Below are positions 10,685-40,999 of a stretch of 64,000 nucleotides of DNA, piece by piece (within the stretch, counting starts at the first letter, position 1; the number at the start of each line of letters is the position of its first letter). The notes below the pieces were generated by a model. It ran no database searches and was not told the origin of the DNA. It saw only the letters and a program-made list of their open reading frames with translations. This DNA is from Bacteroidales bacterium (GTDB lineage: Bacteria; Bacteroidota; Bacteroidia; Bacteroidales; UBA3663): assembly GCA_045600445.1 (NCBI GenBank), contig JAZRXZ010000052.1, positions 18,771 to 82,770 on the forward strand, in the 5' to 3' direction. A program made the translations under genes and the position numbers.

Positions 10685-12991
10685 TTAGAGGTCCATATTT
10701 GGCTTGCAGACATCATGTCCTGCTACGCTCTGAGCCTTAGCCTGAGTATAGACACCCGTGCCGCGGATATCCTCTACGCTTGCACCGAACTTGACAGTGT
10801 ACTTGCCAGCTGCGGTTTCCCAAGCCTGAGTAGCCTCGTTGTAAGAAGCAAGCTCATATGCGCTGACGGTCATAGTAAGTGTCTGGCTCTCACCTGGCTG
10901 GAGCTCACGTGTCTTAGCGAAAGCCTTCAACTCGTTAGCTGGCTTCTCAAGGCCACCTGCAGGAGCAGAGACGTAGAGCTGAACAGCCTCCTTGCCAGCT
11001 ACCTTACCAGTGTTGGTAACGGTGATCTGAGCGGTGAAACCATCCTTGCCTGCCTTAACTACTGGCTTAGAGTATGCGAAAGTGGTGTAGCTCATACCGA
11101 AGCCGAATGGGTAAGAAACCTCTACACCAGCGGTGTTGAAGAAGCGGTAACCCACGTTGAGTCCCTCCTGATGGAGTGTGTAGTCGGTGTTCTTAACTGG
11201 GCCACGACGCCACCAGTTATTACCCTCAGAGATACCTACGTTAGGATAGTTCTGTGAAGAAGGAACGTCTGCACCTGCAATAGGGAAGGTCATGGTGAGC
11301 TTGCCCGAAGGATTAGCCTTGCCGGTCAATACGTCAACTACAGAGTTGCCACCTTCCTGACCTGGCTGCCAAGCCATGAGGATAGCATCAGGAAGACCCT
11401 TCCAAGAAGCAGTTTCAATAACATTGCCCATGTTGAGCACAACAACCACCTTCTTGCCTGCATGGTGGAAGTACTGACATACATTATTAATAAGATCACG
11501 CTCTACCTCAGTGAGGTTGAAGTCATTCTCGATGTGACGGTCAGCACCTTCACCTGCCTGACGGCCGAGGGTGATGAGTGCAATGTCAGCCTTCTTAGCC
11601 TGAGCAGCAATGGCATTGACAGAAACAGCGAGCTCAGGAAGTACTGGCTTACCCCAGCCACGGCCACCACCATTAGCTGCCTGCTGGCTCTCCTGATACT
11701 TCTTATAATCGTAGTAGAGATTCTTGAGATCCTCAGTAACATTGAGACCTGCATTGGTGATACCCTGCATGAGGTCAACGGTGTAAGCCTTGTTAACGTC
11801 ACCCGAACCAGTACCGCCTGCGATGAAGTCGTAAGAGGTAATACCGAAAACAGCTACGTTCTTGACACCTTCCATTGGGAGAGTGTTTGCGTTATTCTTG
11901 AGCAATACCATACCCTCAGTAGCTGACTGGCGGGTTACCTCAGCATGCTTCTGGAGCTCTGGCTTATTGCTGAACTTATAGCCCTGGAAGCGAGGAGTAC
12001 GTACGATGAACTGAAGCATGCGACGGGTGTTGCGGTCAAGGTCTGCCATTGGGATAGTACCCTCCTTTACACCTTCGATGATGCGGTTGATCTCAGTCTG
12101 GTTACCTGGCTCCATCAGGTCATTGCCGGCAATGACAGCTTTCTTGGTACCTTCCTTAGCACCCCAGTCGGTCATGACAATGCCCTTGTAACCCCACTCG
12201 TCGCGCAGGATGGTAGTGAGCAAGCCGTGGCTCTGCTGAGCAAACTCACCGTTGACCTGGTTGTAAGAAGACATAACTGTCCAAGGATCAGACTCCTTGA
12301 CAGCAATCTCGAAGCCCTTCAAGTAAATCTCACGCAAAGCACGCTGGCTGACTACCTCGTTGACAAAGGTACGGTTGGTCTCCTGAGAGTTGACTGCGAA
12401 GTGCTTGATAGAAGTACCTACTCCCTGGCTCTGAATACCGCGAACGTAAGCTGCTGCAATCTTACCAGCCACGATAGGATCCTCAGAATAATACTCGAAG
12501 TTACGGCCACAGAGAGGTGAGCGGTGGATGTTCATACCTGGTGCGAGGAGTACGTCGCAGCCATATTCGAGCACCTCATTACCGATGCTTTGGCCGACGC
12601 TTTCTACAAGTTCCTGATTCCAGGTACAAGCCAGAGCGGTACCTACAGGGAAGCCAGTTGCATAATAAGTGTTTGGATCATTCTTGCGGGTAGGAGAGAT
12701 ACGTACACCAGCAGGACCGTCAGACAATACGGTTGATGGAATGCCTAAGCGAGGGATGGCACGGGTAGCACCAGCTGCACCTGGGACGAGGTCTGCATGC
12801 TGTCCGAGCATGCCGTTCATGTCTTCCGTTGCCTGTGCAATGCTGTAACCTACACAGAGGGTTGCTTTCTCCTCGAGGGTCATAGCCTTGAGGATTTCGT
12901 CGATGTTGTCAGCATTGAGCTTGAGCTGCTGAGCCATCATAGGCTGAGCGCCTAAGAGCAGCGCGAAGGCTGCAAGATTTTTCATCTTCAT
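10685..12991 (-). CDS. Glycoside hydrolase family 3 beta-glucosidase, secreted
   Basis: KGIVMTDWGA nucleophile region with GH3 N- and C-terminal domains and an Fn3-like tail. The start is set at MKMKNLAAFALLLGAQPMMAQ (signal peptide) because an exact -7 box (13039-13046) lies inside the longer ORF call to 13111. Confidence 0.9.
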   Translation of the reverse strand: MKMKNLAAFALLLGAQPMMAQQLKLNADNIDEILKAMTLEEKATLCVGYSIAQATEDMNGMLGQHADLVPGAAGATRAIPRLGIPSTVLSDGPAGVRISPTRKNDPNTYYATGFPVGTALACTWNQELVESVGQSIGNEVLEYGCDVLLAPGMNIHRSPLCGRNFEYYSEDPIVAGKIAAAYVRGIQSQGVGTSIKHFAVNSQETNRTFVNEVVSQRALREIYLKGFEIAVKESDPWTVMSSYNQVNGEFAQQSHGLLTTILRDEWGYKGIVMTDWGAKEGTKKAVIAGNDLMEPGNQTEINRIIEGVKEGTIPMADLDRNTRRMLQFIVRTPRFQGYKFSNKPELQKHAEVTRQSATEGMVLLKNNANTLPMEGVKNVAVFGITSYDFIAGGTGSGDVNKAYTVDLMQGITNAGLNVTEDLKNLYYDYKKYQESQQAANGGGRGWGKPVLPELAVSVNAIAAQAKKADIALITLGRQAGEGADRHIENDFNLTEVERDLINNVCQYFHHAGKKVVVVLNMGNVIETASWKGLPDAILMAWQPGQEGGNSVVDVLTGKANPSGKLTMTFPIAGADVPSSQNYPNVGISEGNNWWRRGPVKNTDYTLHQEGLNVGYRFFNTAGVEVSYPFGFGMSYTTFAYSKPVVKAGKDGFTAQITVTNTGKVAGKEAVQLYVSAPAGGLEKPANELKAFAKTRELQPGESQTLTMTVSAYELASYNEATQAWETAAGKYTVKFGASVEDIRGTGVYTQAKAQSVAGHDVCKPNMDL

Positions 12992-15025: not shown

Positions 15026-15083
15026 CTGAGAAAATGACAAATCTTAACAAAATTTAAACGTTGATTCCTATATTAATAAATGT

Positions 15084-15560
15084 TCATGCGCGTAGTGATT
15101 CGTTCCACTTTTTCACCACATACTGATAGTAGCTCCGATACATCGCTTGTTGTTTCCCTTTGGCACCTGACAATTCGAAGCTGTGTTTATAGTTGGCTGT
15201 AAGTTTGTCAAGTAGCTTCACACACTTACTGATACTCGTACGTTCACTGGTTACTTTGGCGCCGAAGTGGCGAGTTATGGCAAAGAGGAAGCCTTGCAGA
15301 TTATTCTGCATGTTTTTTTCGGTGGTATAATAAAGGAAGATGATTGACCAGAACAGGGTTTTACTCATACCGCGATCTGGGCCGAACAAAAAATCATGTC
15401 TCGTATTCGGTCCTCCTTCTTTATAATAAAGCCTGAGCATAGCTTCGCCACGGCAGAAGAACTCTTCCTCACTTTCCGTTGAGCAGAAAGGGTTCTCCAC
15501 CGGGCGACCTACAGCACGTTTGGCCTTAGGTGTTATGTCTTCGTCATCTGTCCAGAGCAT
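15084..15560 (-). CDS. Hypothetical protein (158 aa), island cargo
   Basis: Long ORF 5 bp downstream of the 329-aa gene with protein-like composition and an AT-hook-like KRAVGRPV near the N-terminus. No family recognised. Confidence 0.55.
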   Translation of the reverse strand: MLWTDDEDITPKAKRAVGRPVENPFCSTESEEEFFCRGEAMLRLYYKEGGPNTRHDFLFGPDRGMSKTLFWSIIFLYYTTEKNMQNNLQGFLFAITRHFGAKVTSERTSISKCVKLLDKLTANYKHSFELSGAKGKQQAMYRSYYQYVVKKWNESLRA

Positions 15561-15565
15561 GTGCT

Positions 15566-16555
15566 TTACTCCTCTTCAATATCATCCCAGATATCATCAT
15601 CCATCTCTTCCTCTTTTGAGAACAACGACACTCCCAGCGCATCCAGTGTCAGGAAGTTCCACGAATAGCTCTCATCGGGGGTCGATACGTCATACTTGAC
15701 CATCAGCGCCTTCCATTGGGCATGGAGTGCATCCATCTGCTCCTGTGACGGATGGCGTTCTCCCATCGTCCAATGCTCTCTGATCCAAGCCGAAAGCTCT
15801 CGGGCGCAGAGCACCTGATTGTGCCGATAGGTAGGGTCGATGAAGGTGTCGAACGAGTCGTATACCGATTGCTCCAGCAGGTCAAAGCCCAGCAGCTGAC
15901 CCACCAGGATATGGTTCTCGATTTCCCAAAGATCTTCTGCACACTTGCAGATGGCGGCAGTCAGAGCCTTCTGCTTTTCGTCCGTCTTAGTGCATCTCTT
16001 CCATTCCTGATTTACCTGATATTCAAACGATTCTGTTGCCTCCTGACGCGCCACACATGAGTATTTCTCCACATCCATCCAGATCTGGTGTTCCAAGTCA
16101 TAGAGGATGGCCGCCGACAGGTAAGGCATGGGTTGGCCGATGGCCGGATCTCCCTGACAGATCAGCTCAAAAAGCTCCTTGTTTTCGAAGCTCGATGTTC
16201 CATTATTCAAGTTCCATGGCCAAGCCGACCAATCAATCTTCCTACCGCGGAATAGCGGATAGCACACCTCCTTAACGTCCAGATAGAACCCCAGACGCAC
16301 GCGCTTCTCAGCCGAAAGCTGATTGATCTGGCTCAGGTCTCTGACCAGCTCACACAACTCCTGATCGTCAAATACCTCAAGCGTATATTCGGTGATCTGT
16401 GAGTACCGACCCTCGCAAAACATCACATTATTGGCCGTTCTTAGCACCAATTGGCGATATTCCTCGCTCTTTTTTTCGGGCAGATGGGCGAAGTCAACGT
16501 CCTTTATGAAGTGGTCATAATAACCTATGATAATATCTAAAGTCCACGATTTCAT
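15566..16555 (-). CDS. Hypothetical protein (329 aa, Trp-rich, acidic C-terminal tail EEEMDDDIWDDIEEE), island cargo
   Basis: Long ORF with its own -7 box (16612-16619). No family recognised. Confidence 0.6.
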   Translation of the reverse strand: MKSWTLDIIIGYYDHFIKDVDFAHLPEKKSEEYRQLVLRTANNVMFCEGRYSQITEYTLEVFDDQELCELVRDLSQINQLSAEKRVRLGFYLDVKEVCYPLFRGRKIDWSAWPWNLNNGTSSFENKELFELICQGDPAIGQPMPYLSAAILYDLEHQIWMDVEKYSCVARQEATESFEYQVNQEWKRCTKTDEKQKALTAAICKCAEDLWEIENHILVGQLLGFDLLEQSVYDSFDTFIDPTYRHNQVLCARELSAWIREHWTMGERHPSQEQMDALHAQWKALMVKYDVSTPDESYSWNFLTLDALGVSLFSKEEEMDDDIWDDIEEE

Positions 16556-16611
16556 ATGCTTAGCTTTATTTGTGGTAGGGGCGGAAGAGCATTCCTTCTC
16601 AAATCCTGACG

Positions 16612-16619
16612 CAAAGATA
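16612..16619 (-). promoter_or_regulatory. -7 box (TATCTTTG) for the 329-aa/158-aa gene pair
   Basis: Exact TAnnTTTG about 57 nt upstream of the ATG at 16555. Confidence 0.55.
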
Positions 16620-16647
16620 ATACTTTTCCGTCACCCTACCAAATTTA

Positions 16648-16687
16648 GTACACTCTTTTTCTTATTGTTAATTGTTATTTGTTATAA
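16648..16687 (+). repeat. 41-bp heptad-repeat element, copy a
   Basis: GTACACTCTTTTTCTTATTGTTAATTGTTATTTGTTATAA. It is the inverted partner of copy b (3 mismatches). Confidence 0.9.
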
Positions 16688-16729
16688 CCCTCGGCAAAAG
16701 CTCTTTCTATGGCTGCGAGGACCTTACTC

Positions 16730-19069
16730 TCAGGCGGCCGCTTGCATCACCTTCTGGTATCTACCATCGCCCACCTTTCTCACCAATCCGTCAGCCACCC
16801 ATCGGCTGAGCACCATGGCCACCTGAGCATTAGCACCATTCTGCAGACGTAGGGCAATGAGGTCTTGTGTCGTGAAGTCATTAGCGAGCAATGAGAAGAG
16901 CTTCTTATTCTTCGACATACGTGTCTGGCTCTGTTGCAAGGCGTTATCCACCTCGTTGATCTCCTCGTAGGCCTTTCCGCAGAAGGTATAGACACTCTGA
17001 CGCATCGCCTCGGCCGTCCACTTCACCACCTTGCCAATCTCCGCTATCTGCTTCTCATCGGTCGGACAGCCACGCAGGAACCACTCCAGTACGCCCACTC
17101 TCATAGCCACTACCAGCGAGCGCTTGCCCAGATCGTACCACACCTCATCAGGATTCTCGTCATCTTCCTTATCCCACTTATTCTTAATGAGCAGGATATT
17201 TTTTTCGAGCCAAGGCAACTGCACCTTATTACCGTCCTTGCCCGCCTGTGTGAGACGGTCACAAACCTCCTCAAACTGAGCACGTTCAGTATCGGTAAAC
17301 TTCTCATAGTGAGGGAATCCCTTCATTCTCACCTTTGGCATGAAAGCGTAGAGGATTCGGTTGTTGAGGCCACCTTCCGGATTACTGTAGAACTTGTGCA
17401 TAGCGCCCGGAGTACCACAGAAAAGCGTGTTGAGGAAGATCGGGATACGGATGTTTCGTGTCTGCTTACTCTTCGATTCCTTGCCTCCTATGGCATTGTC
17501 GAACGCCTTGCAGTAGAGGTCATCATTGTCTCCATAGATGGTGCGCTTGGCTTTCTGCAGTCGCGCCACCTCCTCGGTAAACTGAATACCGTGCTCGCCC
17601 TTCAGATTGTCCAGATACTCCAGAAACTGACTCGTTGTGATGTCATCACCATAGATTCTGACACGTGGGCGAGGGTCATCGGGTTTCTCCGAGTCGTCCG
17701 AAGCCTTGTTGCATATCGCTAAGTACTCATCGGCTTTCCGGCGTTCCAAAGCATCCTGCACCCTGATTCTCTGCGTCATCTGCTCGAAGAGATGAGCTGC
17801 GAAGGCCTTGCCCGAACCACTCTTGCCCACCACGGCGGTCATGAACGAGAGGGAGTTCTCGCGGCCATCCATGTAATCGAAACGGATATGCGTGCCATAC
17901 AAACCCCAGATCGGAAGCATAGACATAAATGCCTGTGCACGAAGGTGTTTTGGATAATGTGCGAGTATCATCTCCTCCACGGCCGAGAGCTTTGGCAGTT
18001 TGGCCAACTGCACCACTTCTGTATCTTCCTGCTGGTCAATGCTCTCGTTCTTCAGCTCGCTCAATACGCCTCGCATCATCGGAGTGATGGTTCGTCCGTT
18101 GGTAGCAATGGCGCTGCCGATGGTGCGGCGGATCTCCCCGTCAGGCAAGCCCTCGAAGTAAGGCGCTGTGAGCATATATACCGTCTGGAAGTTGTACTCG
18201 CAGATGTGGCGCAACTCACGCACCAGCGCAAACAATACATTATTACGCTCACCCACCTTAGCCACTCCCTGAGTAGCCAGTCGCTTCAACAATGCCTCGA
18301 TGATGGAGCTGTATTTGATGCCGTTGTAGGAGAAGCTATCTGCGATGTTCTGCTGAGCAGTGTTCCCATTTGAAGAATTTGCTCTTGTTTCGCTCATATT
18401 CCCATGCTGGGTATCTGCAGCTTGAGGCAACTTTAAGACCTCCTCCCTTTGAGGGCTCTCACAGCCAAGGCTTGATAAGCCTTCTCGAGAAAGTGGGGTA
18501 GGTCTTTGTCTTTCAAACAAGCCTTTCTTATCCCAAAACATCAGATATTCGTTGCCAGGCAGAAACGACAGTCGTGTAATGTCCTTGATCTTCTCATCGG
18601 CAAACTGCTCCATGCCAAACTGTGCAGCTATTCTTGCCTGGCACTCGCTGATCTTCTCACCTTCGCCCAACACCGTCACCAGTCGAAGTCCCTCGCCGCG
18701 AGGAGTGATGTGCACCAGCACAATACCCAGTTCATGCTCATGGCCCGCGATGTTCTTGATATAGAACAGGCGAGGCGACTCTGGCATGTGATCCCAGTCG
18801 TGGATGCAGAACCCGCTCTCCACGGCAAGCCCGTTCTGCGCCGAAGGTCGCTCCCCGTTTTCGGTCATCTGGCAGGCAAACAGTATCACCGGCAACTGCT
18901 GCTTCCACTGACTTTTCTTCTCCTGATCTGTTTCGGCCTTGATGCGAGCCATTGTCTCGCGTACCTTCTCAGAGTTTATCAACTGCTCGAAGCCCTCAGC
19001 AGTCAAAAGTTTCATGGATTTTTCCAAGCGGGAATCCATGTACCCGATTTGAATGAATTTTTTGTCCAT
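16730..19069 (-). CDS. Mobile-element primase-helicase-like protein (VirE/BT4734-type N-terminal region + DUF3987-like P-loop NTPase)
   Basis: Walker A VVGKSGSGKAFAAHL within a core typical of DUF3987. The N-terminal ~170 aa resemble the BT4734/VirE N-domain. An iteron array lies immediately upstream. Family names are from memory. Confidence 0.7.
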   Translation of the reverse strand: MDKKFIQIGYMDSRLEKSMKLLTAEGFEQLINSEKVRETMARIKAETDQEKKSQWKQQLPVILFACQMTENGERPSAQNGLAVESGFCIHDWDHMPESPRLFYIKNIAGHEHELGIVLVHITPRGEGLRLVTVLGEGEKISECQARIAAQFGMEQFADEKIKDITRLSFLPGNEYLMFWDKKGLFERQRPTPLSREGLSSLGCESPQREEVLKLPQAADTQHGNMSETRANSSNGNTAQQNIADSFSYNGIKYSSIIEALLKRLATQGVAKVGERNNVLFALVRELRHICEYNFQTVYMLTAPYFEGLPDGEIRRTIGSAIATNGRTITPMMRGVLSELKNESIDQQEDTEVVQLAKLPKLSAVEEMILAHYPKHLRAQAFMSMLPIWGLYGTHIRFDYMDGRENSLSFMTAVVGKSGSGKAFAAHLFEQMTQRIRVQDALERRKADEYLAICNKASDDSEKPDDPRPRVRIYGDDITTSQFLEYLDNLKGEHGIQFTEEVARLQKAKRTIYGDNDDLYCKAFDNAIGGKESKSKQTRNIRIPIFLNTLFCGTPGAMHKFYSNPEGGLNNRILYAFMPKVRMKGFPHYEKFTDTERAQFEEVCDRLTQAGKDGNKVQLPWLEKNILLIKNKWDKEDDENPDEVWYDLGKRSLVVAMRVGVLEWFLRGCPTDEKQIAEIGKVVKWTAEAMRQSVYTFCGKAYEEINEVDNALQQSQTRMSKNKKLFSLLANDFTTQDLIALRLQNGANAQVAMVLSRWVADGLVRKVGDGRYQKVMQAAA

Positions 19070-19125
19070 AATTAAAATTTATAGTTAATAATCCGAGCCA
19101 TTATTTTTCGCTCGTTTTTCGATTG

Positions 19126-19133
19126 CAAATATA
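19126..19133 (-). promoter_or_regulatory. -7 box (TATATTTG) for the primase-helicase gene
   Basis: Exact TAnnTTTG about 57 nt upstream of the ATG at 19069. Confidence 0.55.
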
Positions 19134-19185
19134 CATAAAAAAATCCGCGTTTACAAGCCTTTTCTCGCCAAAAGAATGGATTTAT

Positions 19186-19265
19186 AATTAGTGTGGCATA
19201 ATATCGAATTAGTGTGGCATAATCCGTAATTAGTGTGGTATAATATCATAATTAGTGTGGCATAA
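19186..19265. repeat. Four iterons AATTAGTGTGG(C/T)ATAA at 21/21/22-bp spacing (origin-like)
   Basis: Copies start at 19186, 19207, 19228 and 19250. Confidence 0.9.
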
Positions 19266-19294
19266 CTTATGACTGTTCTCGACCATAAGTTATG
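19261..19294. repeat. 11-bp inverted repeat CATAACTTATG / CATAAGTTATG (12-nt spacer) abutting the last iteron
   Basis: Read directly. A T9 tract follows at ~19316-19325. Confidence 0.85.
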
Positions 19295-19368
19295 ATAACG
19301 GTCGGTCATGAGTATGTTTTTTTTTCAGCTTGTCATAATCTATTTAACGAAGACTGATATTCCACGAT

Positions 19369-19407
19369 TATAACAAATAACAATTAACAATAAGAAAACA
19401 AGTGCAC
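19369..19407 (-). repeat. 41-bp heptad-repeat element, copy b
   Basis: TTATAACAAATAACAATTAACAATAAGAAAACAAGTGCAC, the reverse complement of copy a. Confidence 0.9.
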
Positions 19408-19496
19408 CTATTGAGTTAAAGAAGAGAGAAGATGTTCTATATATATAATAGGTATATTTAAAACTCCTTAGAAATTTTCCGTAAAATTCCCTTCCA

Positions 19497-19537
19497 CCCA
19501 CACTATTTTCCTTATTGTTAATTGTTAAATGTTATAA
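19497..19537 (+). repeat. 41-bp heptad-repeat element, copy c
   Basis: CCCACACTATTTTCCTTATTGTTAATTGTTAAATGTTATAA. It is the inverted partner of copy d (2 mismatches). Confidence 0.9.
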
Positions 19538-19636
19538 CAGGTGTTTACCTCAATATAAGCCGTTATAAAATCGAATGCTCTCTTTCTGCGCCAAGGCATC
19601 CTCTTTTCGGTACGCAGTTTAGCATGCCACGCCCAA

Positions 19637-19670
19637 GGCATCCCTTTCACAGTACCGTGACAAGGATGCC
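19637..19670. other. GGCATCC...GTAC...GGATGCC hairpin, the same family as the hairpins at 28672-28832
   Basis: GGCATCCCTTTCAC-AGTACC-GTGACAAGGATGCC. A weaker relative with a CGGTACG centre lies at ~19596-19635. Confidence 0.7.
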
Positions 19671-19838
19671 ACGATCAAGAATTGCAGCTTCCGAAATCCT
19701 GACAGCCTTTTCTTGGCCGTGGATTTCAACATCGCGTACCAGATGTCAGTATTCTTGATGTGCGAAACTGCATTTTGAATTTCGAATGTAAAAAAACGTA
19801 TCGACACAGGTAAAGAACACGAACATGTTAGAATAATA

Positions 19839-19880
19839 AAGACCTCCACTTTCGCTAAGATTGTGGAGGCCTTATTTTTT
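19839..19880. terminator. Hairpin terminator with a strong T-run on the plus strand and a weaker one on the minus strand
   Basis: AAAGACCTCCAC-TTTCGCTAAGATT-GTGGAGGCCTT followed by ATTTTTTT. It may also terminate the minus-strand gene ending at 19935. Confidence 0.65.
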
Positions 19881-19886
19881 TATAAT

Positions 19887-19925
19887 TGTAACATTTAACA
19901 ATTAACAATAAGAAAAATAGTGTGG
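19887..19925 (-). repeat. 41-bp heptad-repeat element, copy d
   Basis: TGTAACATTTAACAATTAACAATAAGAAAAATAGTGTGG. It lies between the stop codon at 19935 and the hairpin at 19839-19880. Confidence 0.9.
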
Positions 19926-19934
19926 TTGTCGCTG

Positions 19935-20849
19935 TTAGATGTGTTTAATCAGGTGTCTGCCCCATACCACGATCATCGCAAAAAGGACGCGGGTAGAGAT
20001 GATCCACCACGCTGAGATGCCGGTGATGGCGAAGACGATGGTATCTTCGAGCATGGAGTGATTCATGATGAGGTGGTAGTTCACATCGTTGGCTTCTTTG
20101 GGGGTGATGACGCCTTTCTCTTCCAGTTCGAGCATCACGGCTGAACCGTAGCTGAGGCCTAAGACGTTGCCTACGAGCCACATATAGGTGGCTTGGCGCG
20201 ATAATCCGAAGACGTGCATCAGTGGCGCGAAGAATTGAGAGAGCTTCGGCAGGAGGTTATAGGCTTCGATGAGACGCTGGATGACCATCAATGAATAGAT
20301 GATGCCGAAGACCATGACCACCATCTTCAGCTGGGAGAGGAGCCAGGTGTAGAGAACTTCCATGAGGCTACTGTCGGCCGCAGCACCCATATAGGCGTAG
20401 GCTTCGGGCATGTCAGGAAGCACAATATTTAAATAGTACGCGCATACGAAGGCCATGATGATGCGGATGATGCCCATTTTGATGAACGAGGAACCGGTCT
20501 TCTTGCACACCGCACACTCCATAGGCAAGGCGTGGCAGAGCGCAATCATCAGACAGATAATCGTGGCTTGGCGTAAGGTGAGTGGGATGGACATCATGGC
20601 CGCAACACCCGCATAGGTGCCAGCCGTGGCTCCGGTGATGAAAATAACGGCCGAAGACCCTGGTAATCCCATGTACTGAAAGATGGGATTGAGGTATTGT
20701 GCAATCCACTCGAGGATGCCGAAATGCTGCAGCAATGCCACAGCTAATGAGATAGGAATCATCAGCTTCAAGAGCCACTTGGCACTTTTGAGTGTAGTTG
20801 GCCAAGCGGCTTTGAGGCTATATAGTAGTTTCTTTTTGAACTGAGACAT
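19935..20849 (-). CDS. Nucleoside-recognition (Gate) domain membrane protein
   Basis: Polytopic membrane protein resembling Bacteroidales nucleoside recognition domain proteins (assignment from memory). Confidence 0.55.
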   Translation of the reverse strand: MSQFKKKLLYSLKAAWPTTLKSAKWLLKLMIPISLAVALLQHFGILEWIAQYLNPIFQYMGLPGSSAVIFITGATAGTYAGVAAMMSIPLTLRQATIICLMIALCHALPMECAVCKKTGSSFIKMGIIRIIMAFVCAYYLNIVLPDMPEAYAYMGAAADSSLMEVLYTWLLSQLKMVVMVFGIIYSLMVIQRLIEAYNLLPKLSQFFAPLMHVFGLSRQATYMWLVGNVLGLSYGSAVMLELEEKGVITPKEANDVNYHLIMNHSMLEDTIVFAITGISAWWIISTRVLFAMIVVWGRHLIKHI

Positions 20850-23587: not shown

Positions 23588-23611
23588 TGTAACATTTAAC
23601 AATAAGAAAAA
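23588..23611 (-). repeat. Shortened copy e of the heptad-repeat element (lacks one TTAACAA heptad), ending 2 nt before the Arc-like start codon
   Basis: TGTAACATTTAACAATAAGAAAAA compared with copy d TGTAACATTTAACAATTAACAATAAGAAAAA. Confidence 0.8.
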
Positions 23612-23613
23612 CA

Positions 23614-23814
23614 ATGGCCAAGAAAGAAGGAAACACTACTAAAAGCTTTGTACTACGTGTCGATGGCGCTACGATGGATGCTATCGAGGCGTGGGCTGCT
23701 GATGAGTTCCGTTCGGTCAACGGCCAGATACAATGGATATTGGCCGAGGCGCTCAAAAAAAGCGGCAGGCTGAAGAAAACGAAAGCTTCGCTCCAACAGC
23801 CTGCTGAGGAATAA
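23614..23814 (+). CDS. Arc/MetJ-type ribbon-helix-helix DNA-binding protein
   Basis: KSFVLRVDGATMDAIEAWAADEFRSVNGQIQWILAEALKKSGR matches a beta-strand plus two-helix RHH pattern. Confidence 0.65.
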   Translation: MAKKEGNTTKSFVLRVDGATMDAIEAWAADEFRSVNGQIQWILAEALKKSGRLKKTKASLQQPAEE

Positions 23815-25037: not shown

Positions 25038-25967
25038 TCATGATTGAACCATGCTGAGAATATCACGGTGAATCTTTGAGATTTCATCGTACTCGCCGAA
25101 ATAGAGCTGACTGGTAAGTTCTTTCTCAAAGTGTTTGTTGAATTTCGAACCTTGTGACACAATCAGATCATAGAGCTGATGGCCTCTCACGAAAAGATAG
25201 CAGTTGTCTTGGTGTACACCTTGTGCATTGCAGCGAGCCTCATACCAGGTGGTATCAGCGTCTGGGTAGGTTTGCTTGAGATGCTTTAGAAGCTTTGAGC
25301 AACGTTCACGCAACAAGCGTAAGACCGAATCACCATTATGATATATTGAGCGATGTCCCAAAGGAAGAGCAAGAATGCGATGGAAGACTTTCTGAGGGAA
25401 AGCATCTTCGCCGACTTCCTGCAGGTAGAGCTGCCATACCAGAAGAGGATATACGGCATAGGAATAACTCTTCAGGAACTTTTCGAAAGAAAACTCCGGG
25501 AGAGGAGCCATTGCTTTTTCCTGTTGCTTTGCCTCTTCTTCTCTTGCCACATCTATGGCGCGTTGACAATTTTTATAGTAACAGAAATGATTTTCAAAGC
25601 TATAGGTGTAGGTCTGCAGTACGTAGTGATTAGCGTCAATGCCGCACTCCTCGGTCAGATAGCGGTAATCAGAGTCAATGGCAATCCAGAAACGTTGATC
25701 CAGAAATTCACGGTATTGTAGGCACTGAGTGCAGCCGGCAGTCATATTGCCACTGAAACTGCGACTGGCTGAAATGAAACGGAATTTCCCTTGAGGATAG
25801 GCCTCATGGAGTACCTTTCCCCAGAAGATCTCATCATTCTTATTCTCGATATGAATTGCCGCAGTAGCCCCCGTCAGACGACATTCCGCCTTGAAGCGCT
25901 TGGCAGCACTCTCATAGAAGGCGCGTTTCTCGCTGTTTGAGACGCGTGTGCGGGGTTCGAGATTCAT
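25038..25967 (-). CDS. DUF4435-like (OLD/AriB-type TOPRIM) protein
   Basis: TOPRIM-like acidic motifs in DUF4435 order: IHIENKNDEIFWGKVL (Glu), WIAIDSDYRYL (DxD), YTYSFENHF (YS-ENy-type motif). Confidence 0.6.
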   Translation of the reverse strand: MNLEPRTRVSNSEKRAFYESAAKRFKAECRLTGATAAIHIENKNDEIFWGKVLHEAYPQGKFRFISASRSFSGNMTAGCTQCLQYREFLDQRFWIAIDSDYRYLTEECGIDANHYVLQTYTYSFENHFCYYKNCQRAIDVAREEEAKQQEKAMAPLPEFSFEKFLKSYSYAVYPLLVWQLYLQEVGEDAFPQKVFHRILALPLGHRSIYHNGDSVLRLLRERCSKLLKHLKQTYPDADTTWYEARCNAQGVHQDNCYLFVRGHQLYDLIVSQGSKFNKHFEKELTSQLYFGEYDEISKIHRDILSMVQS

Positions 25968-27787: not shown

Positions 27788-28624
27788 ATGAGCAATCTTC
27801 ACATTACCGATATCGTTATTGAGAGTATGTGGGGCGATACCACCTTGGAGTGGCATGGCCTTGATCCTGGCGTCAACATCGTCGTCGGTCAGAACGGCTT
27901 TGGTAAGTCGACGATGCTCAACCTCATCCGCGCCGTCCTGATGAAGGACGACAAGTTTGTCAAGCAGCTCAAGGCTAAGGTCTCTATCACGACTACTGCA
28001 GGAGAGATGACGTTCGATGGTAAGCAGATGGTTCACAAGCCTGCTTTTGGCGGCTATGACAGCCCTGCCTGTTTCTACTACGTCAATACGTTCGATGTGC
28101 CGGCCAGCAAGAAGTCTTCGCTCTCGCAGCTAGGACTCACGCTCGATCAGGTTCTCTATCAGCGCAATCCGGATGTTTTTTCATTCTCTGACTATCGTCT
28201 AGGAATGCTTAAGGACCTACGTTCTGCGTTGGCTAAGCAGGAGCGTATCGATAAGTTCTTCGAGCTCATTAACTCGCTCTTTGTCAACACGGGCAAGACC
28301 ATCGAGATTGATGATAAGAACCGAGTCATCTTCCGCAAGGGTGACCTCATCATCGAGATGGAGCGCCTCTCAGCAGGTGAGAAGCAGATTCTGCTGCTCC
28401 TCTTCACGCTCTTCCTCATGGAAGATAAGCCTACGGTACTTCTTCTTGACGAACCGGAAATTTCTCTGCACATTGAATGGCAGGATCGCCTCATCTCGCT
28501 CATGAGCGAACTGAATCCTAACTGTCAGATCATCATGACTACCCACTCGCCAAATATCTTTGCGGATGGATGGGAAGACAAACTGACGTTTATCAGTGAT
28601 CTTGTCGTTACAAACCCTGAATAA
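27788..28624 (+). CDS. Small ABC-type/AAA_21-like ATPase (278 aa)
   Basis: Walker A GQNGFGKST, signature-like LSAGEKQ, Walker B LLLDEPEISLH and H-loop TTHSP. It lies 18 bp after the nucleotidyltransferase gene. Confidence 0.8.
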   Translation: MSNLHITDIVIESMWGDTTLEWHGLDPGVNIVVGQNGFGKSTMLNLIRAVLMKDDKFVKQLKAKVSITTTAGEMTFDGKQMVHKPAFGGYDSPACFYYVNTFDVPASKKSSLSQLGLTLDQVLYQRNPDVFSFSDYRLGMLKDLRSALAKQERIDKFFELINSLFVNTGKTIEIDDKNRVIFRKGDLIIEMERLSAGEKQILLLLFTLFLMEDKPTVLLLDEPEISLHIEWQDRLISLMSELNPNCQIIMTTHSPNIFADGWEDKLTFISDLVVTNPE

Positions 28625-38785: not shown

Positions 38786-40999
38786 TTAATTGATTCGCTC
38801 TACATTCTTGACTCCCTTCACAGCATTGATCTTTCTGATCAGGATATTGAGTGAAGATAGATCATTGACCATGACAGTCAGATGACCATGGAAAATACCA
38901 CCTTCAGTATCAATGGAGATGCTACGTAGCAGCGTATTCTGTTCTTTATTGATCACCTGAGAGATGTTCGATACGATTCCGATATCATCCTGACCGACCA
39001 CACGGAGCGTAATGCTATACTGATTGCCGCTCTTGCCACTCCAACGAGCTCGCTGTATGCGGTAAGGATATTGCTCTGCCAGGTTCTTTATATTTACACA
39101 ATCGGCACGATGGATGGTAATGCCACGAGTGATACTTACAAAACCGACCACATCATCGCCATAGATCGGATGGCAGCATCCCGCCAGTTTATACTCGATA
39201 CCTTTGAGGTTACGGTCGATGACCAGTTCGTCCTGACCAGACTGATTGTTGATGTCAAAGTCTGCGGCAGAATGTGCATGTTCTTGTGACTCCTGAATGA
39301 TCGGTGTGCGGTTGAGAAATGCATCATATTCTTTGATCACATGGTCAATAGTGATGTCTTCCCTCGATAGCGCCTGATAGAATTCCGTCTGTGTCTTAAA
39401 TCCGAGTTTGATGATGAAACGAGATAGTTCTGACTCATCGATCTCCATCTTACGGTTCTTGAAGCGACGTTGCAAGAGTTCCTTGCCAGCCTGCGACTCA
39501 TGGCTCTCGATCTCCTTGATCGTCTGTCTGATGCGAGAACGCGCTTTGCTGGTGGTCACAATATTAAGCCAATCAGGCTTTGGCTTCTGCTGGTTCGAAG
39601 TCAGAATCTCCACCGTCTCACCGCTATGCAACTGGTAGTTAAGCTTTACGTTCTTACCACTTACACGTGCACCAACACACTGCATACCGATGCGTGAGTG
39701 AATATGGAAAGCAAAGTCAAGTACAGTGGCACCTTTAGGGAACTTGTGTACGTCACCATTCGGCGTAAAGCAGAAAACCTCTTCGCTGTAGAGTCCCATT
39801 GAGAAGTCCTTCATCAGGTCTCCCGTAGCAATGCCAGATTCGAGTACTTCGCGGATCGATGCCATCACGTCATCTGCTGCACCCTGGCTCTTGATACCTT
39901 TGTATTTCCAGTGAGCTGCGAGGCCACGTTCGGCAATCTCGTCCATACGCTTGGTGCGGATCTGGACTTCTACCCAACGCTCCTTAGGTCCGTATACCGT
40001 GATATGTAGCGACTCATAACCATTGCTCTTAGGGATACTAAGCCAGTCTTTCAGTCGCTTAGGATTCGGCTGATACATATCGGCCACCACGCTGTAAGCC
40101 TGCCAGCAGAGCGCCTTCTCCAATTCTTTCTGATCTGTATCGATGATAATTCGGATGGCAAAGAGATCATAGATCTGGTCGACGCTCTTCTGTTGCTTCT
40201 TGATCTTGTTCCAGATGGAGGCAATGCTCTTGGTGCGTCCTTTGATGTGAAAAGGAGCGGGGAGTACCTCCTTCAATTTTGCTTCGAGAGGTGCAATGAA
40301 CTCATGTATATACGCCTCACGAACAGCTTTAGTATCCTGCAGCTGGTTTACGATGTCATCAAAGACCTCAGGGTGCTCATACTTAACGGCCATATCCTCC
40401 ATCTCACCCTTGATGACATAGAGTCCCAGGCGATGTGCGAGTGGAGTGTAGATGAGACGACTCTCATTGGTCACACGCTGGCGATATTGGAGGTCGCTCG
40501 TATGGTTGAGTATCTTCATCATTACATAGCAATCGCAGATGAGGCAGATGATGATACGGATGTCCTGTGCGAAGGAAAGCATGAGCTTGCGGAAGTTCTC
40601 ATCCTCAAGGTTGTCATGCTCTGCATAGAGGTGTTTTACTTTACCCATGCACGACATCAGGTGAGCTACTTCCTCCCCGAAATCATTGGTTATCTCCTCT
40701 CGGCTGATGACGTCATGCTCTGCTAAAGGATAGAGCAGTACGGTCAGGATGGAACGACGACCCAGTCCTACCTGTTCGTGCAATACCTGGCAGGTCATGA
40801 TCAAGTGGACCAGTTGCTGAACACCATGTGTATCTCTGTCATAGATGCCAGCTTCCACACCTCTTAAAATATACTTGCGTATTAGTCTCCATTCACTGGT
40901 TGCAATACGCGATGGAACAAGCTCCAACAGCTTGCGATAAGCTGTAAAGAACTGCTGATTCTCCTCTGACGTGAAGCGATCTGTTGTGAATAATTTCAT
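38786..40999 (-). CDS. RelA/SpoT family (p)ppGpp synthetase/hydrolase
   Basis: Synthetase motif YESLHITV...VEVQIRTKRMDEIAERGLAAHWKYK, a TGS domain and a C-terminal ACT domain. Confidence 0.9.
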   Translation of the reverse strand: MKLFTTDRFTSEENQQFFTAYRKLLELVPSRIATSEWRLIRKYILRGVEAGIYDRDTHGVQQLVHLIMTCQVLHEQVGLGRRSILTVLLYPLAEHDVISREEITNDFGEEVAHLMSCMGKVKHLYAEHDNLEDENFRKLMLSFAQDIRIIICLICDCYVMMKILNHTSDLQYRQRVTNESRLIYTPLAHRLGLYVIKGEMEDMAVKYEHPEVFDDIVNQLQDTKAVREAYIHEFIAPLEAKLKEVLPAPFHIKGRTKSIASIWNKIKKQQKSVDQIYDLFAIRIIIDTDQKELEKALCWQAYSVVADMYQPNPKRLKDWLSIPKSNGYESLHITVYGPKERWVEVQIRTKRMDEIAERGLAAHWKYKGIKSQGAADDVMASIREVLESGIATGDLMKDFSMGLYSEEVFCFTPNGDVHKFPKGATVLDFAFHIHSRIGMQCVGARVSGKNVKLNYQLHSGETVEILTSNQQKPKPDWLNIVTTSKARSRIRQTIKEIESHESQAGKELLQRRFKNRKMEIDESELSRFIIKLGFKTQTEFYQALSREDITIDHVIKEYDAFLNRTPIIQESQEHAHSAADFDINNQSGQDELVIDRNLKGIEYKLAGCCHPIYGDDVVGFVSITRGITIHRADCVNIKNLAEQYPYRIQRARWSGKSGNQYSITLRVVGQDDIGIVSNISQVINKEQNTLLRSISIDTEGGIFHGHLTVMVNDLSSLNILIRKINAVKGVKNVERIN

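Follow-up and report, generated by a model that had tools for sequence, protein, structure and literature searches.

An iteron array conserved with a primase-helicase gene in a small integrase-less island of Bacteroidales, and its plausible role as a replication origin

The window, the whole 64,000-nt stretch of Bacteroidales DNA that was analysed, carries an inserted island with three genes, the largest of which encodes a 779-aa primase-helicase. On the 5' side of this gene lie a promoter, an array of four direct repeats (iterons), a small inverted repeat, a T-tract and a pair of heptad-built inverted arms around an AT-rich spacer. The features are listed below in window coordinates.

15060..19943, no strand: inserted island of 4,884 bp with three genes, delimited against the empty site in locus L062
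15084..15560, minus strand: 158-aa protein, third gene of the module, which follows the 329-aa gene in the family
15566..16555, minus strand: 329-aa acidic all-alpha protein, always downstream of the primase-helicase
16650..16687, plus strand: arm copy A, in the interval that separates the primase-helicase stop from the 329-aa gene's promoter
16730..19069, minus strand: ORF of the 779-aa primase-helicase
19126..19156, minus strand: Bacteroidetes-type promoter of the primase-helicase gene, from a TAnnTTTG scan and the columns of alignment A1
19186..19265, minus strand: four direct iterons, reading TTAT(G/A)CCACACTAATT in the sense of the gene
19250-19265, 19228-19243, 19207-19222 and 19186-19201: the iteron copies in order towards the gene, spaced by 22, 21 and 21 bp
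19261-19271 and 19284-19294, no strand: small inverted repeat CATAACTTATG-N12-CATAAGTTATG, with arms 100% complementary
19317..19325, plus strand: T9 run (A9 in the sense of the gene), ATAAAA in L011 and absent elsewhere
19368..19537, no strand: arm unit with 37-nt inverted arms B (19368-19404) and C (19498-19537) and the heptads ATAACAA/TTAACAA
19886..19925, minus strand: arm copy D, abutting the stop of the Gate-domain gene, 18 nt in from the island's left boundary

The direct-repeat motif AATTAGTGTGG(C/T)ATAA was found four times on the plus strand, starting at 19186, 19207, 19228 and 19250, with start-to-start spacings of 21, 21 and 22 bp in that order. The 16-mer AATTAGTGTGGCATAA is exact at 19186, 19207 and 19250, and the variant AATTAGTGTGGTATAA occupies 19228. 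These four 16-mers conform to the iteron-origin pattern of at least three direct repeats phased at about two helical turns, and since the copies recur every two turns they all lie on one face of the DNA. The 779-aa ORF is encoded on the minus strand, and the iterons are therefore upstream of its ATG, at a distance of 117-196 bp. When up to three mismatches were allowed, the 64,000-nt window returned five matches against 0.89 expected, a number attained by none of 100 shuffles; the fifth match, at 1359 with three mismatches, is unrelated to the array. The repeats agreed in number, position and spacing with the original prediction from which this analysis set out, and the inverted repeat (19261-19294) and T9 run described there were both located in the window. 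The range of 60-260 bp upstream of the start that it had given for the whole assembly was roughly right, the T-run lying about 250 bp away, and the search it had proposed for the 16-mer elsewhere, run on the window, revealed no further copies of the array.

The 779-aa protein was predicted to consist of a BT4734-like AEP domain (residues ~1-190), a disordered linker (193-240), a helical domain, a DUF3987 AAA+ core and a winged helix (~720-775). Pfam recognised DUF3987 alone (residues 393-609), as did NCBIfam, and a Walker A motif, GKSGSGK, is present at 415-421. Distant homologues aligned over the full length (22-25% identity, ~97% of the length) carry PF08800 together with DUF3987 (PF13148), and an alignment of 34 sequences contained the invariant residues D91 and D93 (CIHDWDH), G127, R129, D158, D163 and K421. 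The AlphaFold (AF2) model (pLDDT 83) comprises an N-terminal alpha/beta domain, the linker, a helical domain, a P-loop core and a C-terminal winged helix, and its best Foldseek matches were MCM subunits, with E = 2.5e-6 and weaker. PADLOC gave weak matches to an AbiEi wHTH (742-773) and to a VirE-PriCT (RTasVirE-PriCT2) primase module (6-186) and no defence-system match of substance, and a PDB sequence search with the profile of the protein returned P-loop noise only. Judged from the alignment and the model, the protein is an AEP primase joined to an MCM-like AAA+ domain and a C-terminal winged helix: the alignment points to a primase fused to a helicase, and the model predicts a hexameric-type helicase ATPase with a C-terminal dsDNA-binding domain. 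The label of primase-helicase given in the original prediction was thereby borne out by Pfam, alignment, AF2 and Foldseek alike. A Rep_3-type (WH-WH) initiator was not found, the 779-aa protein having a single winged helix. Its relatives were absent from IMG/VR and no homologue was detected on PLSDB plasmids; one match of 23% identity was on a 4-kb 'phage' contig.

BT4734-like proteins constitute one family of AEPs, DUF3987 is a predicted helicase of mobile genetic elements, and for AEP-helicase fusions a role of the winged-helix domain in origin recognition has been predicted (PMC5862659). In a Flavobacteriia element, a PriCT-DUF3987 protein acts as a 5'-3' helicase that binds its BT4734-like primase-polymerase (PMC11724360), and replication of the PICMI satellites requires a DUF3987 'primase' (PMC10803314). 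Two further loci, L021 (6962-7070 and 5943-6002) and L022 (2577-2795), encode VirE_N+DUF3987 homologues of 23-24% identity in which intragenic inverted heptad arrays lie where the gene codes for the disordered linker that joins primase and helicase domains, an arrangement that recalls the intragenic origin of lambda gene O. Unlike these distant homologues, the window gene has no intragenic repeats in its linker region.

The limits of the island were set by a close relative, L062, which was reached through a 96%-identical homologue of the Gate-domain protein; exact-protein look-ups of the PadR, Gate and 779-aa proteins of the window yielded no record. In L062 the synteny Gate-PadR-PspC-GH3-TauE is preserved and Gate is followed directly by PadR. 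Homology is lost at 19944 and 15059, and 15060-19943 therefore replaces 195 bp. No direct repeat or duplication of at least 8 nt, target-site or att-like, was found at the island junctions, and neither the island nor the window DNA up to ~10 kb from it encodes an integrase or recombinase; the element carries none of its own. Elsewhere in the family, a tyrosine integrase with Arm-DNA-bind_5 and HTH_17 proteins lies 1-3.7 kb upstream in L002, an integrase-SAM-like protein is encoded nearby in L003 and an IS200-like transposase nearby in L007, and the flanks of the island are different in every genome. Comparison of these sequences indicates that 15060-19943 is a mobile insertion in a Prevotella-type chromosome. 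The original prediction had pictured an origin embedded in a chromosome without integration machinery; the lack of an integrase within ~10 kb agrees with this, but the locus is more aptly viewed as belonging to a 4.9-kb mobile insertion whose empty site is preserved in a close relative.

The two other genes of the island encode proteins of unfamiliar type. The gene for the 329-aa protein was detected by tblastn in L002-L009, L031 and L037. Its AF2 model (pLDDT 88.8, pTM 0.83) and sequence found no match in PDB, BFVD, Pfam, NCBIfam, PHROG or PADLOC, and its invariant residues include E213-N214-H215, R85, R87, D93 and C98. The protein appears to be an orphan fold confined to the island family, where its 42 clusters are all at least 45% identical. 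The 158-aa protein likewise gave no family, fold or PDB match. Scans of the window for tRNA and Rfam families returned nothing, and small ORFs in 19330-19935 looked spurious. A circular episome was rejected, as the 4.3-4.6-kb Logan contigs lack terminal overlaps; these contigs break at the 36-nt arms, and no circular or amplified form of the island was seen. A partition centromere was rejected as well, there being no ParA, ParM or ParR-like gene after the array. Further along the window, a DUF4435 protein (25038-25967, minus strand) is encoded near an AAA_15/AAA_21 ATPase (27788-28624, plus strand), a pairing that we take to resemble a defence-type ATPase/nuclease pair; it does not belong to the island, because L062, the relative with the empty site, has both genes too.

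A scan of one genome per species identified nine relatives of the 779-aa protein with 59-74% identity, all from Prevotellaceae or Bacteroidales MAGs. Direct copies of the CCACACTAATT core at 21-22-bp spacing were present just 5' of the gene in all nine (two to four copies by repeat finder, three to five by core search). In an alignment of ten loci (A1) the core CACACTAATT was invariant, and the surrounding intergenic DNA averaged ~49% identity. The tabulated family was then of 26 loci, whose members are 44-77% identical over the first 400 residues. An array of two to five CACACTAATT copies, spaced by 20-22 bp and separated from the ATG by 100-126 bp, precedes the homologous gene at 24 of these 26 loci. 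Three to five core copies were counted in 23 loci, and the 24th, L014, holds four degenerate copies (TTATRCCACnnWAAT) at an exact 21-bp spacing. Across the family the core is constant, the spacers and flanks vary, and the core was not found elsewhere within the 7-14-kb loci with up to one mismatch.

There were two exceptions. L010 (82% identity) has no array within its 237 bp of upstream sequence, in which the -7 box is present; the contig ends there, and positions 1-237 hold just one palindromic CCACTTATTAAAGTGG. In L012 two inverted copies of the motif lie 98 bp apart. A more distant homologue, L013 (28% identity), lacks the two accessory genes; the primase-helicase is the sole protein common to this locus and the island, and a different repeat, CACGAATTA, is found 5' of its gene, the first two copies 21 bp apart. 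The winged-helix region RWVADGLIRKV is conserved in the family, as is the iteron core; in L013 the winged-helix sequence differs and the repeat differs too. Short repeats hence adjoin the initiator gene and are conserved with it. Because the array is conserved 5' of a homologous gene in independent genomes, it is far beyond chance, and on this sequence conservation we regard the four iterons as functional DNA.

The promoter of the primase-helicase gene has a -33 TTG at 19156-19154, a 20-nt spacer and the -7 element TATATTTG at 19133-19126. The arrangement TTG-N20-TAnnTTTG, which matches the Bacteroides -33/-7 promoter consensus, is common to all loci downstream of the array, and in alignment A1 the columns of the -7 TTTG and the upstream TTG are invariant or nearly so. 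The proximal iteron of the window ends 29 bp 5' of the -33 element, and the distance from the array end to the promoter across loci is 20-30 bp; the sites are in this sense positioned at a promoter, as in an operator array. Such proximity suggests a transcriptional or autoregulatory role at least as directly as origin firing. A conserved inverted iteron or half-iteron operator over the promoter was looked for and not found. The small inverted repeat is located at the end of the array that is farther from the promoter, and its second arm overlaps the flanking sequence of the distal iteron. In L011, the closest relative with upstream sequence (83% protein identity), this second arm has decayed and the A/T run has shrunk to ATAAAA, and in L001 and L031 both the inverted repeat and the T-tract are missing. 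Support for a function of the inverted repeat is weak or absent, because it is not conserved in these three loci. No DnaA box was found near the array, and TTATNCACA has a single match in the 64 kb, at 40985. The flanks of the array are 65-85% AT; the least stable segment, 19430-19479, is at least 165 bp off.

A second repeat, built from heptads and ~36-40 nt long, occurs four times in the window and there in the island only. It reads CCACACTATTTT-CTTATTGTTAATTGTTAAATGTTATAA and is composed of three heptads and AATAAGGAAAATAGTG; the consensus in other loci is GGTAACAAGTAACAGGTAACAATAAGGAAAATAGTG. Arms B and C enclose a conserved AT-rich spacer of 93 nt (19405-19497), and the least stable 40-mers of the region, at 19430-19479, rank in the top 0.5% of the window. 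Within arm C, positions 19498-19508 read CCACACTATTT, which resembles an iteron in inverted orientation. At 75-87% identity, the arm-spacer-arm unit recurs in L003, L007, L015 and L055; it is absent in L001 and L009, and is displaced by ~900 bp in L005, L006 and L008; it is therefore separable from the iterons. Copy A precedes the promoter of the 329-aa gene, whose -7 element is TATCTTTG at 16619-16612, and a degenerate copy is present at the right edge of the island (15060-15089). Every transcription unit is bordered by an arm repeat, as is the insertion on both sides. The repeat might function in recombination, as a REP-like element or as a leader/promoter module.

Many arm copies, of either orientation and often directly before a gene start, were observed in L002-L008, L012, L015, L037, L055, L057 and L060, and assemblies break 5' of the primase-helicase gene because of this repeat. 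Its terminal AAWTAGTG is similar to the iteron's first half. Outside the island, an arm-like GTAACATTTAACAATAAGAAAAACA is found at 23598-23620, directly before the ATG of a 66-aa ORF (23614-23814). The segment between arms C and D (19538-19885) is unique to the window and forms stable folds on both strands (z = -4.3/-5.1), with a bidirectional terminator-like hairpin at 19832-19880; its GGTACGC/GATTTCAACATC motifs weakly match the intergenic repeats between Gate and PadR in L062. This segment may be host intergenic DNA, possibly inverted between two arms.

The distribution of the array was also assessed in public metagenomes, where a scan for two cores 21-22 bp apart returned 39 loci. The primase-helicase gene is directly downstream of the array in six of them, and 32 are unrelated tandem repeats with whole units of 11, 21 or 22 bp and without family flanks. 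All seven arrays with family-type flanks belong to the element, six with the gene and the seventh, L055, as what we read as a remnant: its arms, two iterons, promoter and 5' leader (11216-11670) are kept at 80-87% identity and are fused to a queH-like 187-aa gene, without the primase-helicase. This solo cis-region could have come about as a deletion remnant or by promoter capture. No match to the array was found in IMG/VR. The original prediction had held that the same array upstream of unrelated genes would mark an ordinary transcription-factor operator; such a pattern was not observed, the family-flanked hits all being tied to the element. Since the metagenome hits are either tied to the element or unrelated tandem repeats, the array is not a regulon operator.

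The arrangement had been described from the outset as the canonical layout of iteron-controlled origins. This is partly right: the repeats are real, phased, conserved and adjacent to an initiator gene. However, the initiator is not of the Rep_3/RepA type, there are no DnaA boxes, neither an operator inverted repeat nor the T-tract is conserved, and plasmid relatives are lacking, with no PLSDB homologue and no circular form among the small contigs that would indicate autonomous replication. The array is accordingly not a classical Rep_3-type plasmid iteron origin. It shares with the plasmids pSC101, R6K, RK2, F and P1 a set of 3-5 direct repeats of 17-22 bp, phased at ~21-22 bp and placed beside the initiator gene and its promoter, with autoregulation expected (PMC4980987). 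Those plasmids differ in using a WH-WH Rep that recruits host DnaB, where a primase-helicase is encoded here, and in having DnaA boxes and a promoter half-iteron operator, neither of which is present in the island.

Closer parallels are found among integrated elements. P4 alpha, a protein of 777 aa, has primase and helicase parts together with a C-terminal winged-helix domain that binds the origin by recognising repeated sites. The window protein is similarly a single polypeptide of ~780 aa with a predicted primase, helicase and C-terminal winged helix, the counterparts of the iterons in P4 being the type I iterons of ori and crr. The primase of P4, however, is not an AEP of the BT4734 family, its octamer iterons are grouped at ori and crr, two clusters far apart, and it has an integrase and capsid-hijacking genes; the two proteins have no sequence similarity, as neither PHROG nor Pfam gave a link beyond the P-loop. 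In Staphylococcus, SaPI Rep and SCCmec Cch2 each use the C-terminal domain to bind iterons adjoining their own genes (PMC7581432), and replication of these islands has been proposed or shown (PMC7581432, PMC9371898). The SaPI Rep and SCCmec Cch/Cch2 systems resemble the present one in being integrated islands with an MCM-like or AAA+ initiator helicase, a C-terminal domain that would contact short direct repeats beside its own gene (a prediction in the case of the window) and a primase that is fused or adjacent. They differ in that their origin is downstream of the helicase gene, whereas the iterons here are upstream by the promoter; in that their iterons are 5-8 bp, against 16 bp at 21-bp phasing; and in that they carry their own recombinases, against none here, where the primase is a fused BT4734-like AEP and the host belongs to Bacteroidota. 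The PICMIs, or minimalist phage satellites, are likewise tiny chromosomal islands (5-6 kb, ~6 genes) with DUF3987-dependent replication (PMC10803314), but int, alpA and insertion in fis are the features by which they are defined, and none of these applies to this locus, for which a helper phage or packaging signal is likewise not known. AgaPP and AgaPH of Flavobacteriia mobile elements show that a BT4734-like AEP and a PriCT-DUF3987 helicase serve as mobile-element replication machinery in Bacteroidota (PMC11724360); these are two separate proteins, unlike the fusion seen here, and their element has an integrase and a tRNA att site, with no origin or iterons described (PMC11724360). The precedents of P4 alpha, SaPI Rep and SCCmec Cch2 (PMC7581432) make an origin role for the array plausible.

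The reading that we favour, at roughly even chances, is that the array serves as the origin of a self-loading primase-helicase of the P4, SaPI and SCCmec kind and probably also in autoregulation. The C-terminal winged helix of the 779-aa protein would bind the iterons, the bound protein would assemble into one or more rings of the AAA+ (MCM-like, DUF3987) helicase, the helicase would open adjacent AT-rich DNA and load itself, and the N-terminal AEP domain would lay down primers. With the array 29 bp from the gene's own -33, its occupancy would probably set transcription of the primase-helicase too. The sequences themselves show the repeats, where they lie and how they are conserved, the promoter motifs, the domain architecture and the insertion; we infer the identity of the iteron binder, the melting of DNA and the start of replication here. 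This origin-binding model is the best supported, because the iterons are the sole cis-element that travels with the family throughout and the winged helix is the sole predicted DNA-binding module. Several observations count against it. Circular or amplified forms were not seen, homologues are missing from known plasmids and from IMG/VR, and SaPI and SCCmec origins are downstream, not upstream, of the helicase gene. The array is directly 5' of a promoter and looks equally like an activator site or operator; the meltable DNA is at least 165 bp away, in a unit lost or displaced in some loci; and L010 is without an array, L055 has an array without the primase-helicase, and L012 has its copies inverted at 98-bp spacing.

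A purely transcriptional operator is accordingly the main and a serious rival, though in our judgement a doubtful one. The array would then be solely a control site for the primase-helicase promoter, bound by the primase-helicase or by another factor. Its constant position 20-30 bp 5' of the conserved -33/-7 promoter in all loci speaks for this, as do the second arm-repeat copy similarly placed relative to the promoter of the 329-aa gene, the array and promoter that precede a queH-like gene in L055, and the absence of DnaA boxes. On the other hand, no regulator gene or DNA-binding fold was recognised in the island besides the winged helix of the primase-helicase itself, and sites upstream of a promoter rather than over it offer a poor geometry for simple repression. 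The array is never 5' of unrelated genes except in the single remnant L055, and a replicase with an origin-recognition-type domain needs a cis-site, of which the array is the only universally conserved candidate.

Origins of SaPIs consist of iteron sets on either side of AT-rich DNA (PMC7581432), as Ubeda reportedly described in 2007. This form would suit a different assignment, in which the true origin is the heptad arms with their AT-rich spacer (19368-19537) and the iterons have an accessory part in autoregulation, handcuffing or copy control. The region's least stable DNA indeed lies between the arms, the arm unit retains 75-87% identity in comparisons of loci whose proteins share only ~57-67%, and very distant homologues carry inverted heptad arrays in their linker-coding part, comparable to the lambda ori in gene O. 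Yet the 36-nt arm is multi-copy, occurs in either orientation and frequently lies directly before the starts of unrelated genes, and its lack in L001 and L009 and its displacement by a gene in L005, L006 and L008 mean that it is not specific to the replicase; we hold this assignment unlikely. Decidedly unlikely, in our estimate, is the broader proposal that the three-gene unit represents a new kind of self-mobilising, integrase-less replicative element of Bacteroidota, with the iterons as its origin and the 36-nt arms, which delimit it as degenerate terminal inverted repeats, as its recombination sites; replication from the iterons would in that case be part of movement or of amplification in place, for example of the onion-skin type on induction. 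A direct part of the repeats in recombination or transposition, as arm-type sites for a tyrosine integrase acting in trans or as transposase-binding sites for movement of the island, we consider very improbable. Phased direct repeats are typical of arm sites and of the ends of Tn7 and Mu, the Tn7 ends having 22-bp TnsB sites; the island is mobile yet without its own integrase, and an integrase or transposase is encoded near the copies in L002, L003 and L007. But the array is at least 680 bp from the left boundary and tied to the promoter and start of the gene, not to an end of the element; most loci have no recombinase within 6-10 kb, and the other end of the island has no copy of the array.

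The locus represents an uncharacterised family of a known type, with iterons beside the replicase gene of a mobile genetic element, and is unusual in lacking an integrase and in having two companion proteins of orphan fold. If the array acts only as an operator, it would be the ordinary autoregulatory site of an uncharacterised mobile-element gene. Prevotellaceae are a dominant group in gut and rumen for which very few genetic tools are available, and if the array is an origin, the gene and ~450 bp would make a minimal portable replicon for them. An origin here would also mean that a widespread family of tiny chromosomal islands carries a complete initiator, helicase and primase without an integrase, and would raise the question of how such islands move and when they fire.
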